A DNA stretch of 63,584 nt, the filler included, from Candidatus Woesearchaeota archaeon (GTDB taxonomy: Archaea; Nanobdellota; Nanobdellia; Woesearchaeales; CAZJJJ01): assembly GCA_046538795.1 (NCBI GenBank). It is 6 parts of 6 records of this genome, joined end to end, with 100 filler letters (N's around TTAATTAATTAA, not from the genome) between each part and the next. Parts side by side here need not be neighbours in the genome. Positions count along the whole stretch, not along the records: positions 33,496 to 44,304 come from JBKHIF010000049.1; 5 more parts are not named here. One strand, given 5' to 3'. The stretch's first letter is position 1. Each line of letters starts with the position of its first letter. The notes beneath the pieces are model-generated. The model was not told where the DNA came from. It made no database searches and saw only the letters and a list, made by a program, of their open reading frames with translations. Of this stretch, positions 8,165 to 36,895 are shown one piece after another. Made by a program: the position numbers and the translations under genes.

Positions 8165-8423
8165 AAGACCAGCAGAAACATTTTCAAAAAAATGGGGATG
8201 CTGGGATTAATTTGCTTTGTGAAGCAAAGGAAATTTGCAGCAAAAATCACAAGATTTTTGATAGCACGTTTGAAGACCAGCAGAAACATTTTCAAAAAAA
8301 TGGGGATGCTGGGATTAATTTGCTTTGTGAAGCAAAGGAAATTTGCAGCAAAAATCACAAGATTTTTGATAGCACGTTCGAAGACCAGCAGAAACATTTT
8401 GAAAAAATGGGGATGCTGGGATT
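8165..8423. repeat. 108-bp tandem repeat (about 2.4 copies) that includes the 3' end of tRNA-Trp
   Basis: Units start AAGACCAGCAGAAACATTTT at 8165, 8273 and 8381; each contains TGGGGATGCTGGGATT, the reverse complement of the last 16 nt of the tRNA. Confidence 0.95.
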
Positions 8424-8535
8424 CGAACCCAGATCCGTTGGTATCTCCTCTGGCTTTGAAGTAAATCATTGCCTGAAAAGCTCATCGCTCCAGGAACTGG
8501 AGCCAACTATTCTAGCCAGGTTATACTACACCCCC
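8408..8535 (-). tRNA. trnW: tRNA-Trp(CCA) with a 54-nt intron at 37/38 (intron 8443-8496)
   Basis: Acceptor GGGGGTG/CATCCCC, anticodon stem GTTGG/CCAAC, loop CT-CCA-G^A, T-arm CTGGG-TTCGAAT-CCCAG, BHB helix CTCC/GGAG with 3-nt bulges. Confidence 0.96.
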
Positions 8536-33500: not shown

Positions 33501-33637
33501 TGTGGGGAAGGGGATTCGAACCCCCGAACCTACTAAAGGACTGGATTCCTCCTAATAGGCGTGATCACAGCGCAATAGTTGCGCTCACCACTCAATTAAC
33601 TTGAGTCCAGCGGATTTGACCGCTTTCCTATCCCCAC
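33501..33637 (-). tRNA. trnL: tRNA-Leu(CAA) with a 53-nt intron at 37/38 (intron 33547-33599)
   Basis: Acceptor GTGGGGA/TCCCCAC, anticodon stem CTGGA/TCCAG, loop CT-CAA-G^A, long variable arm, T-loop TTCGAAT, relaxed BHB (CTCA/GGAG with a TAAT/ATTA extension). Confidence 0.94.
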
Positions 33638-33763
33638 AATGAGAGTCAATCTGATTTCTTAGCGTAAGCGTGCAATGCATGGGATTCCTTTGGAGATCCC
33701 ATCCGTTTATTGTGTAAACGGAAATTGCCGTTTGCGGACTTGACCGCTTTCCTATCCCCACAA
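33610..33763. repeat. Direct repeat of the tRNA-Leu 5' end (33610-33639 vs 33734-33763) enclosing hairpins
   Basis: GCGGA(T/C)TTGACCGCTTTCCTATCCCCACAA, 30 nt with one mismatch, offset 124 bp. Confidence 0.92.
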
Positions 33764-33880: not shown

Positions 33881-34219
33881 TCACATCTGGTCAAATCCAA
33901 TTGACTTAAGAATATCTTTTATATTCTCTATTACTCTTGTTTGATCTTTTTTTTCAGACATCCTTATGAACTTTATGAGTAATTCACTTAATTCATCAGA
34001 ACTTCCAAATTTCAAAATGTGCCCATCTGTTATGAAATAAAATCTGAATTTATTATATTTTAATTCTTTAATAACCGTACCTCCAACATTTCCGATAGCC
34101 TTACCTTTTTGAGGGTTTTTTTCAAGAGTTTTCATCAATTCAAAAATTTCTATTGATTTCTGTTTAAAATTTCTTTGAATTTCCTCTCGTAAAGATTTAG
34201 AAATGATTACTTTGGCCAT
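33881..34219 (-). CDS. Putative RelE/ParE-like toxin
   Basis: Small basic protein with a RelE-like layout (VIISKSL...LEKNPQKGK...ELKYNKFRFYF); overlaps the upstream antitoxin-like gene. Confidence 0.65.
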   Translation of the reverse strand: MAKVIISKSLREEIQRNFKQKSIEIFELMKTLEKNPQKGKAIGNVGGTVIKELKYNKFRFYFITDGHILKFGSSDELSELLIKFIRMSEKKDQTRVIENIKDILKSIGFDQM

Positions 34220-34410
34220 TTTTTCTTAGCATCAGATATGGCTTCATCTATTGGAACAGAATCAGAAGTATCATAGAGATAAGACATAAGAATGTTTTTT
34301 TTAGCGACTTCATACATTTTCCGTATTACATCTTCATAACTATCTCCTGTTCTTCCTAAATTACGTATCTTCTCTTTCAAGTCTTCAGATATTGCAATTG
34401 TTGTTGTCAT
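34207..34410 (-). CDS. Putative ribbon-helix-helix antitoxin
   Basis: MTTTIAISEDLKEKIRNLGRTGDSYEDVIRKM is a typical archaeal RHH antitoxin pattern; overlaps the toxin start. Confidence 0.72.
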   Translation of the reverse strand: MTTTIAISEDLKEKIRNLGRTGDSYEDVIRKMYEVAKKNILMSYLYDTSDSVPIDEAISDAKKKWPK

Positions 34411-34510
34411 AAAAGATATAAGGATTATAATATTTATAAAACTTATGTATTTTATCAAAATCTTATTAACGAAACCTATTTAAAGCTTGATATTTGGTTT
34501 CTTAATTCTA

Positions 34511-35461
34511 ATGACAAATGATATTCTATCTGTCAAAGACCTGAAAAAAACTTATCCTAAAAATTCTATTTTTAGCAAGGAAAAACCAGTAACAGCATTG
34601 AAAGGAATTTCTTTTAGTGCAAAACAAGGAGAGATCTTTGGAATACTTGGTCCTAATGGTGCAGGAAAATCTACAGCAATGAACATTCTAGCAGATCTTC
34701 TGACATCTGATTCAGGTTCAATAAATATCTTCGGTTATGATTTTTTCAAGAACAAAGAAAAAATAAAAGAAAACATGTCGCTGATAAATGGTTATGCTTC
34801 TTATCCAACAAAATTGACTGTTTATGAAAACATGAAAATATATGCAAAGATATATGGAGTAAAAGATTACAATAAAAGAATCTTAGAACTCTTAGAACTT
34901 GTAGGAATTCCTGAGAAAAAAAATAAGAAATTTTCTGAACTATCATCAGGTCAAAGAACAAGAGTTAACATAGTAAAAGGTCTTATACACAGTCCTAAAC
35001 TTGTTCTTATGGATGAACCGACAATAGGACTTGATCCGCATATTGCATTGAAGATAAGAAAGCTTATTCGAAAAATAAGCAAGGTAGAAAACACTACGAT
35101 AATATTTACTTCGCATAACATGCAGGAGGTTGAAGAGCTTTGCAGTAGGATTGCTCTTCTTAAAGATGGCAATATCCTGAAGACTGCTTCACCACATGAA
35201 CTTACAGATCTTGTTGATGCACAGGTCTATGAAATAGATTATTCAGGAAACAGTAAAATAGTTAAAAATATATTTTCAAGTTTTGAGACACTCAACATTT
35301 CTATCACTAAAGAGAAAATAAAATTTGAAGCAACAAGAAATTTTGAACTTAATGATCTTTTGAGATCCTTTGTTAAGAACAATATAAATATCGTCCACAT
35401 AAACATAAAAAAACCAAATCTTGAACATATTTTCATAGAAGTCGCAGAGGGAAGACTATGA
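34511..35461 (+). CDS. ABC transporter ATP-binding protein (ABC-2 type)
   Basis: GPNGAGKST, LSSGQ, MDEPTIGLD, SHNM. Confidence 0.95.
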   Translation: MTNDILSVKDLKKTYPKNSIFSKEKPVTALKGISFSAKQGEIFGILGPNGAGKSTAMNILADLLTSDSGSINIFGYDFFKNKEKIKENMSLINGYASYPTKLTVYENMKIYAKIYGVKDYNKRILELLELVGIPEKKNKKFSELSSGQRTRVNIVKGLIHSPKLVLMDEPTIGLDPHIALKIRKLIRKISKVENTTIIFTSHNMQEVEELCSRIALLKDGNILKTASPHELTDLVDAQVYEIDYSGNSKIVKNIFSSFETLNISITKEKIKFEATRNFELNDLLRSFVKNNINIVHINIKKPNLEHIFIEVAEGRL

Positions 35462-36246
35462 TTTCAATAAGAAGAATTTCGGCATTAATGGAACAATATT
35501 TCTATATAACCATAAAAACTTTAGATCGGCTTTCAGATCTGTTTTTCTGGCCGTTCATGTCTCTTCTTTTATGGGGTTTTATGAGCAGGTTTCTTCAGTC
35601 AGGATTTGAAGTAAATATCATCGGGCTTGTCATTGCAGGCTATATGTTTTATCAGTTTTTTCAAAGATGCCAGACAGATATACCGATGTATCTTCTTGAA
35701 GATTTTTGGTCAGATACTCTGCAAAACATATTCAGTACGCCAGTAACAAAATGGGATAAACTCATGAGTCTAGTATTATTTTCTCTTCTTAAATCAGTGA
35801 TAGTTATGGTATTTATCTATCTTGTTGCACTTTTCATGTTTAATTTTAATTTGCTTTCAATAAATCCATTATATCTTGCATTATTTTTTTTTTCATTAAG
35901 CCTTTTTGCAGTAGGCATAGGCATAATAGTTGCAGGAGTTATCTTTAGGTATGGAACACATGTTCAGATGATTGCATGGGGATTTCCTTTCATGATGCAG
36001 CCATTGATGGCAGTATTCTATCCAGTAAGCATACTTCCTCTTGGTCTTCAGATGCTGGCAAAGATTATACCTGCAACCTATGTTTTTGAAGGGCTAAGAG
36101 CAGTAAGAGAAACAGGTGTATTTGACACAGGAAATTATCTAATCTCTATAGGATTGAATATTATTCTTCTTATGGTTGCATGCATGATCTATGCAGCAGG
36201 ATTTAATTACAATAAAAAGCATGGAAAATTAATACATGCAGAATGA
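35458..36246 (+). CDS. ABC-2 type permease
   Basis: Six TM helices, FYPVSILP, IPATYVFEGLR; translationally coupled to the ATPase gene. Confidence 0.9.
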   Translation: MISIRRISALMEQYFYITIKTLDRLSDLFFWPFMSLLLWGFMSRFLQSGFEVNIIGLVIAGYMFYQFFQRCQTDIPMYLLEDFWSDTLQNIFSTPVTKWDKLMSLVLFSLLKSVIVMVFIYLVALFMFNFNLLSINPLYLALFFFSLSLFAVGIGIIVAGVIFRYGTHVQMIAWGFPFMMQPLMAVFYPVSILPLGLQMLAKIIPATYVFEGLRAVRETGVFDTGNYLISIGLNIILLMVACMIYAAGFNYNKKHGKLIHAE

Positions 36247-36340
36247 TTATTTGAATTTTTGCACGATAATTATCCCATAATTATAGTATCGCTTAAATAT
36301 GATTTTTATCATTGTAAGATTATTTATGGGGTGTGTTAAA

Positions 36341-36895
36341 TTGAACAAAATTATATCTTTTGTAATTTTAGTCTTAGTTGTTTTTGTGGTTGGTTGTAAT
36401 TCTGATAACAAAGCTACGGGAGAATCTGTGAAGTTGGTAAGCCCTATACAGAAATGTAAGGTTGTTGATGTTCCCTATGATGCGCAGGAAGCATATACTG
36501 AACGAGAACCTTATCAAGCGACTGAAGAATATCAAGTTAAAATGAAATTTGAAGTTGTGGATCGCAGTAAATCTACTTTTCTTAGAGGCCTTGACGTTTG
36601 GGCAAAAGGAATTGTTTCTGTTAGAAATGTCGATGATCAAACAGGAAGGTTCAGTGTGAAACAGACATTCAAAACATTAAATGATCAGAGTACACTATCA
36701 TCAACTAAGTATATTATGCCTGGAGAAATTGTTGAATTTGAAGAAATTTATGATATTGATCTTGGAGAAGATTTTTCCCTGAGTTCTATTGTAATAGCTC
36801 CTGAAAAAACTATGACAAGAACAGTTACAAAATACAGAGATATTACAAAGTATAGAACAGTTACAAAATATAAAAAAGAAGAAATTTGTGAATGA
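36341..36895 (+). CDS. Putative lipoprotein with an elongated beta-hairpin
   Basis: Hydrophobic leader ending VVG-C; periodic Tyr repeats at both ends (PYDAQEAYTEREPY; TKYRDITKYRTVTKY). The start codon is uncertain. Confidence 0.7.
   Translation: MNKIISFVILVLVVFVVGCNSDNKATGESVKLVSPIQKCKVVDVPYDAQEAYTEREPYQATEEYQVKMKFEVVDRSKSTFLRGLDVWAKGIVSVRNVDDQTGRFSVKQTFKTLNDQSTLSSTKYIMPGEIVEFEEIYDIDLGEDFSLSSIVIAPEKTMTRTVTKYRDITKYRTVTKYKKEEICE

Follow-up and report, generated by a model that had tools for sequence, protein, structure and literature searches.

A tRNA-Leu(CAA) intron of a Candidatus Woesearchaeota archaeon as a predicted single-kink-turn guide for methylation of its own wobble C34

The tRNA-Leu(CAA) locus and its intron

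The window, by which we mean the whole stretch of 63,584 nucleotides (filler included) that was analysed, consists of six contigs of a 1.34-Mb Candidatus Woesearchaeota archaeon assembly (GCA_046538795.1) that is 97.6% complete. At the very start of one of them (C27) lies a tRNA-Leu(CAA) gene with a 37/38 intron (33501..33637, minus strand, as are all features of the gene given here); the intron, of 53 nt, follows G37 (33547..33599). The exon stretch A31-A36 (33601..33606), in which C34 is 33603, faces an intronic guide, TTGAGT, at D-7 to D-2 (33590..33595), with the D-5 base, a G at 33593, opposite C34. There follow the D-1 base (33589..33589), a box D-like GUGA (33585..33588), a canonical 6-bp stem with a 3-nt loop, CTA (33570..33584), and a 3-nt bulge with a box C-like GA-U-C that is the kink-turn partner of box D (33563..33569). 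The initial annotation had described these elements (guide, box GUGA, stem, loop, bulge and GA-U-C) letter for letter correctly; it was also right that TTGAGT is complementary to the tRNA's own A31-A36, with six Watson-Crick pairs (33595-33590 with 33606-33601), and that the G opposite the wobble base is the fifth base upstream of the box (33593, against 33588-33585). The kink-turn has both GA steps, a U-U and then G-C at position 4.

The bulge-helix-bulge strand (33549..33552) pairs with C32-A35 in a relaxed splice motif, with two 3-nt bulges, three of four central pairs and an A35-G mismatch, and a gene for EndA lies on contig C77 of the same genome; both the motif at 37/38 and the enzyme that an archaeal bulge-helix-bulge intron calls for are thus present. 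Positions 32-35 have a complement in the guide and another in the splice strand, and since C32-A35 would be shared, the guide pairing and the splice helix are mutually exclusive within one molecule. The hairpin of guide against anticodon loop is seen in the predicted fold of the whole precursor; for the anticodon region, the best model fold scores -23.5 against -15.6 for the guide conformer, whose kink-turn is unscored. An Rfam search of the window returned only tRNA (RF00005) at gathering score and no sRNA family match. The strict module test defined below was passed by 32 of 20,000 dinucleotide shuffles of this intron, a figure that is post hoc on its own, so that the case is carried by the comparative counts.

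The surroundings of the gene hold several further features. A 30-nt duplicate of the tRNA-Leu 5′ end (33734..33763, minus; 29 of 30 identical) lies 124 bases upstream, outside the module; it is absent in four family members, and its 95-nt spacer folds no better than shuffles (z -1.55) and has no relative elsewhere in the genome. On contig C20, tandem repeats of about 90 nt that include a tRNA 3′ end follow both tRNA-Gln genes; they are dissimilar to the tRNA-Leu spacer. Five ORFs occupy 33881-36895: two small ones, for which no useful NCBIfam name was found, an ABC ATPase-like and a permease-like one, and one for a 198-aa protein. Beyond them lies a gene whose look-alike directly precedes tRNA-Leu(CAA) in four family members, and the five-ORF stretch is probably an insertion.

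Recurrence and covariation in the order

A tRNA-exon pattern run over 401 genomes of the same order gave 530 matches, 150 of which were the basis of the follow-up; among the matches listed, 71 CAA-like genes were fetched, together with nine Leu(UAA) controls. Two parser non-matches, two genes too long to parse (the module is visible by eye in both), one mis-parsed gene and two duplicates were dropped, leaving 64 genes, of which 13 have no intron, again among the matches listed. Our strict test asks for exact antisense to 32-36, two bases, NNGA, and a box C closed by a stem or a short loop. Among the matches listed, 31 of the 51 unselected Leu(CAA) introns passed, against 0.26 expected by shuffling, and the 20 that failed comprise three with guide and box D, five with antisense only and 12 with none of these. 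One of the nine Leu(UAA) controls (L203) has the module, with an A opposite U34. In five loci (L129, L144, L169, L179, L189) the kink-turn is kept while the guide decays, and their genomes retain fibrillarin.

An unselected scan of all genomes gave 120 loci, of which 54 have no intron, 53 were parsed with an insert and 13 stayed unparsed; eight pass. In records with the titles Bathyarchaeia, Nitrososphaerales-type, Micrarchaeota or Iainarchaeum, none of 25 introns passed the strict test; named records that do bear the module have the titles Woesearchaeota, Nanoarchaeota/Nanoarchaeia, Aenigmatarchaeota, Undinarchaeota and Ca. Haiyanarchaeum, which would place the source of the window among DPANN archaea of the Woesearchaeota type. 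The title 'Methanosarcinales' also stands on many records with the module; the tRNA bodies of these resemble Woesearchaeota ones, and we suspect the titles. Ten Leu(CAA) introns in Bathyarchaeia-type records (L012, L019, L021, L027, L067, L077, L089, L101, L111, L114) have a conserved 33-41 nt form in common, with the module absent. Four Leu(CAA) genes (L037, L068, L137, L139) have a second insertion, in the T-loop.

Covariation was assessed with a scan in which both guide bases were accepted for both anticodons, and which found at least 120 loci; from the 120 listed, 12 unparsed, three chance or mis-parsed and two duplicate loci were dropped, leaving 103 Leu introns, and the counts treat these sequences as independent although they are related. 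Among the matches listed, D-5 tracks position 34 in 100 of 103 introns (C-G 71, U-A 29, U-G 2, C-A 1), and in 98 of the 99 with a box C, which both U-G cases lack; in 91 of 103, D-2 and position 31 form a Watson-Crick pair (A-U 81, G-C 8, C-G 2). Box C was found in 99 of these 103 listed introns though it was no part of the search pattern. At position 4 of the kink-turn, where box D pairs with box C, 70 of the 99 have a Watson-Crick pair, again among the matches listed, where permutation gives a mean of 35 and a maximum of 54; the compensatory kink-turn pair that the initial annotation had proposed therefore holds across the family, though few members have G-C there. Across many genomes, then, there is conservation and covariation of guide spacing, kink-turn and target, which that annotation had proposed to check in related Leu(CAA) introns.

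Pooling the sets gave 126 distinct Leu modules from the matches listed (99 CAA, 27 UAA), and the following counts hold among those matches. Their introns measure 31-138 nt, 30 of them at most 40 nt, and three or four central bulge-helix-bulge pairs are present in 118. D-1 is G, U or A, never C, and position 30 is always G. That no second C/D pair is evident, as first noted for this intron, proved general among the matches listed: a second D..C pair, linear or circularised, was found in only one of the 126 introns, and none has a full box C upstream of its guide.

The module in other tRNA introns

In the genome of the window, three of 19 parsed introns hold the module: those of Leu(CAA), elongator Met and Trp. 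The tRNA-Trp(CCA) gene (8408-8535, minus, contig C24) has a 54-nt intron (8496..8443) whose module (8464..8493, minus) consists of a 7-bp guide to G31-G37, box D, stem-loop and box C. The module is absent from the 16 other parsed introns of this genome, among them initiator Met, Leu(UAA), Lys(CUU), Arg(CCU), Gln and Ser; Ile(UAU) was left out. A tRNA gene with an intron and the anticodon UAU (Ile), which ARAGORN calls Ser, lies at C76:19046-19161.

Across 41 relatives, scored by eye, 24 Trp loci comprise 21 modules, two introns without and one intronless gene (21 of 23 introns), and 15 Met loci comprise nine modules, three intronless genes, one cut gene and two chance cases. In all nine elongator Met introns the guide, by eye, tracks its own anticodon; three guides mismatch U36. 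In these three (L474, L476, L477) the guide reads like a Leu(CAA) guide, and such sequences could reflect transfer of a cassette between tRNA genes. A phylum-wide Met pattern matched in 14 of 401 genomes and was too strict; two of its matches (L570, L571) have an initiator-type look and lack the module. Of the role that the initial annotation did not recognise as described for tRNA-Leu(CAA), we found neither the intron location nor the single motif in print; the module is not confined to this tRNA, and Trp and Met introns carry it too.

Some introns show related arrangements. In a tRNA-Leu(UAG) intron (L481), bases upstream of a D-hairpin-C motif pair with the 3′ splice junction, with C39 at D-5; this is a single case of a module aimed at 39 and not at 34. 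Four long Trp introns (L490, L496, L502, L509) have a second antisense after box C, with C39 at D-5 of UUGA; this antisense changes with position 41 in L502, the UUGA can pair fully in a hairpin, and a second box C is not evident.

A search for a free-standing Leu guide module elsewhere in the genome of the window found none, and in 13 genomes with an intronless Leu(CAA) a search for free-standing Leu guides gave 10 matches against six in the control, none convincing by eye.

Protein machinery and co-occurrence

Of the core proteins that a kink-turn guide would need, fibrillarin and Nop5 are encoded by adjacent genes on contig C52 of the window's genome, while L7Ae appears as a contig-end fragment only (the C-terminal last third, at the start of contig C80). 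A Pfam L7Ae match on contig C17 is L30e. L7Ae occurs in 37 of 41 relatives, whatever their introns, and as a full gene in three of six family members. Neither TrmL nor an RlmE/Trm7-type enzyme was found in the window's genome, whose sole SpoU match is TrmJ-like and whose sole FtsJ match is an m5C enzyme.

Co-occurrence was assessed on 301 genomes at least 90% complete, using the exact module pattern. This was matched in 88 of 277 fibrillarin-positive genomes (and so unmatched in 189) against one of 24 fibrillarin-less ones; the Fisher p of 0.004 treats kin as independent and, as fibrillarin losses cluster in few families, overstates the case. Four of the 24 were assigned by their absence from the positive list, and five fibrillarin-less genomes are also without Nop5. 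Among 69 genomes with fetched genes, seven are without fibrillarin: four have module-less introns, two no intron, and one, 87% complete, has the module. The tallies of the tRNA-exon pattern and of co-occurrence include genomes marked as unpublished (G112, G132, G206, G208, G210, G304, G316, G336, G338, G371, G375, G609), four of which are among the 89 module-positive genomes, with G112 among the 24 fibrillarin-less; all regions that were fetched come from other genomes.

A probable self-aimed half-guide and its alternatives

We infer that the Leu(CAA) intron guides methylation of C34, and its module most likely works like one half of a C/D sRNA. At the level of sequence it shares with these RNAs the kink-turn and a target at the fifth nucleotide upstream of box D; it has neither their two box pairs nor their guide of about 10-12 nt (6 bp here), and because these two defining features fail we would not class it with the standard C/D sRNAs. 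The reading that we prefer, with a probability of roughly 0.6, is a single-motif guide that makes Cm34 on the unspliced pre-tRNA in cis; taking action in cis and in trans together, a guide of this kind is very probable. The initial annotation's proposal of a single-K-turn guide is therefore supported, as a predicted function, by the conserved and covarying spacing, kink-turn and target and by the encoded core proteins.

In such a scheme the guide of the unspliced precursor would fold back on A31-A36 as a hairpin, as both sequence and covariation show; L7Ae would bind the D/C kink-turn and, by analogy with the known pathway, recruit Nop5-fibrillarin, and fibrillarin would methylate the 2′-OH of C34, base paired to D-5. 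The covalent link could replace the usual 10-12 nt guide and, more speculatively, the place of the missing second motif could be taken by the body of the tRNA or, on the Nop5 dimer, by a second precursor. The RNA would then refold, with C32-A35 and the intron 3′ end forming the bulge-helix-bulge that EndA cuts; as guide and splice pairings use the same bases, the structure implies that methylation would have to precede splicing.

The same chemistry might instead occur in trans, with a second precursor or the excised (circular) intron as guide, perhaps as two half-guides on one Nop5 dimer that together supply two motifs; we hold this to be unlikely. In vitro work on the Haloferax Trp intron favours trans over cis (PMC2584109, PMC7994747), half-mer RNAs have been crystallised on Nop5-fibrillarin (PMC6239191), and the Nanoarchaeum equitans Met intron persists after splicing (PMC3491384). 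The target-guide stretch is self-complementary, so that two precursors could pair, and among the matches listed 24 of the 126 modules could form 9-11 pairs and two have spacers of 1-2 nt, which are tight for a hairpin. Against this, the guide duplex has only 6-8 bp in 102 of the 126 among the matches listed, and as two strands it is worth -5.4 kcal/mol in this copy (median -7.9 over the 126; the Thermococcus Trp guide reaches -18.5), less than an ordinary guide acting in trans would need, which favours action in cis; the intramolecular hairpin would, moreover, compete. D-9 also argues for the precursor: among the matches listed it pairs with intron base 1 in 37 of 53 Leu modules against 18.5 expected, and where precursor and mature tRNA differ it fits the precursor in 16 and the mature form (A38) in six, of 29, so that, with this pairing above chance and above A38, the precursor is the better target.

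It is decidedly improbable, in our judgement, that the kink-turn binds L7Ae only to hold the precursor hairpin, delaying or gating splicing or stabilising the intron without methylation, with the antisense a duplicated strand of the splice helix. The shared complementarity of guide and splice strand to 32-35 would fit such a role, as would the four loci (L334, L359, L431, L433) in which box C lies at the splice strand itself, the presence of L7Ae in relatives regardless of their introns, and the loss of specificity of single motifs in vitro (PMC1635284). For a gate the register would not have to be fixed, yet D-5 lies opposite position 34 and C never occurs at D-1; the tRNAs that host the module are known position-34 targets, and it is absent from the 16 other introns, and it is nearly missing where fibrillarin is missing, five such genomes being without Nop5 as well.

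There is also a slim chance that the family is functional and this copy a weakened or dead member. It belongs to the shortest guide class (6 bp), has a D-8 mismatch, and carries a box D, GUGA, that is rare among the matches listed (three of 103 Leu introns); in this copy GUGA can also pair Watson-Crick with UCAC (33561..33564, minus; 33564-33561 in pairing order), hiding both boxes, and folds of this type are favoured by the nearest-neighbour model, which does not score kink-turns. Decaying guides are known in other lineages. The register, both GA steps, U-U and position-4 pair are intact, however; box D and box C have changed together to G-C, where four family members have C-U, A-U, U-A and U-C, and no free-standing Leu guide module was found elsewhere in the genome of the window.

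Chance resemblance is negligible as an explanation: in the 596-Gb collection, where most listed records are bacterial, chance alone often produces loose forms of the motif, and a loose scan without tRNA context gave mostly chance matches, three of which were parsed further and none entered into our counts, but chance origin is rejected by the unselected strict passes and the covariation counts, and is at odds with the Trp and Met guides and the 16 introns without a module.

Comparison with known systems

Among the known systems closest to the cis-acting half-guide that we favour is the euryarchaeal pre-tRNA-Trp intron guide (Pyrococcus sR50 and Haloferax volcanii; PMC7994747, PMC2584109), likewise a 37/38 intron directed at its own C34 in the N+5 register and paired to the precursor. 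The Thermococcus Trp introns (L549-L569; 21 loci, nine distinct) fit two guides and two box pairs into 62-63 nt, arranged as C, guide 39, D′, C′, guide 34, D, and form a 10-11 bp duplex, whereas the order here is guide 34, D, hairpin, C, with one pair, 6 bp and introns down to 31 nt; the sR50-type order with two targets is not found in the Leu(CAA) intron. The box C′/D′ label of the initial annotation is apt in that D stands before C and is closed by a hairpin, and inapt in that the Thermococcus C34 guide belongs to box D at the intron 3′ end; from these layouts, the module is better called a permuted half of a Thermococcus-type Trp intron guide.

C34 of tRNA-Leu(CAA) is itself a familiar target. 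Pyrococcus abyssi sR47 guides its Cm34, as shown in vitro (PMC3413156, PMC5558902), and differs from the intron in being free-standing, with a 12-nt guide, the usual archaeal length (PMC3413156), and in acting in trans. Position-34 C/D guides are predicted in Pyrococcus for four tRNAs, Leu(CAA), Leu(UAA), Met and Trp (PMC7994747), and the hosts of the one-motif module are Leu(CAA), Leu(UAA), Met and Trp. In reviews, the Trp intron figures as the only tRNA intron that contains a guide (PMC4090602, PMC11408192), and a literature search, with most subscription papers outside its reach, found no tRNA-Leu intron guide and no one-motif intron guide in these archaea.

The elongator tRNA-Met intron of N. 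equitans was reported as stable and abundant (31,500 reads) and as a potential C/D sRNA (Randau 2012, PMC3491384), with 'no prediction' of a target in the table and with the other three introns much shorter. By eye it has the same layout, with ATGAG at D-7 to D-3, CTGA, a 3-bp hairpin and GATGA, a comparison made on the intron sequence alone; the parts of that paper covered do not describe self-targeting, Leu introns or a family.

The strongest result against a self-aimed half-guide is the loss of site specificity in one-motif RNPs: engineered single-motif particles are active but without N+5 specificity, for which two motifs are needed (Hardin and Batey 2006, PMC1635284). These hemi-complexes resemble the module in having one box motif and one guide, with the target covalently attached in one design, and they assemble with L7Ae, Nop5 and fibrillarin and methylate; they are synthetic and not site-specific, whereas in the natural modules of different lineages it is always position 34 that D-5 is set to face. 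More than 100 natural one-motif introns with a fixed, covarying register bring two questions within reach of tests with short RNAs: if a single kink-turn is enough to define a site, and if a guide in an intron works in cis or in trans, a point regarded as open in vivo (PMC2584109).

We tentatively suggest, and hold it somewhat less likely than not to be right in full, that small archaea use natural one-motif C/D RNPs whose site specificity comes from tying the substrate to the guide, and that the guide-D-hairpin-C cassette is portable: it would have passed from one tRNA gene to another, adapting its guide to each new anticodon and obliging methylation to come ahead of splicing. If so, this cassette, 31 nt at its smallest and with a box C that is sometimes the splice strand, would be one half of the symmetric C/D RNA, able to work alone and perhaps the unit from which that RNA was built. 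Many tRNA introns of these archaea would gain a function through the module, and the Met intron of N. equitans a putative target.
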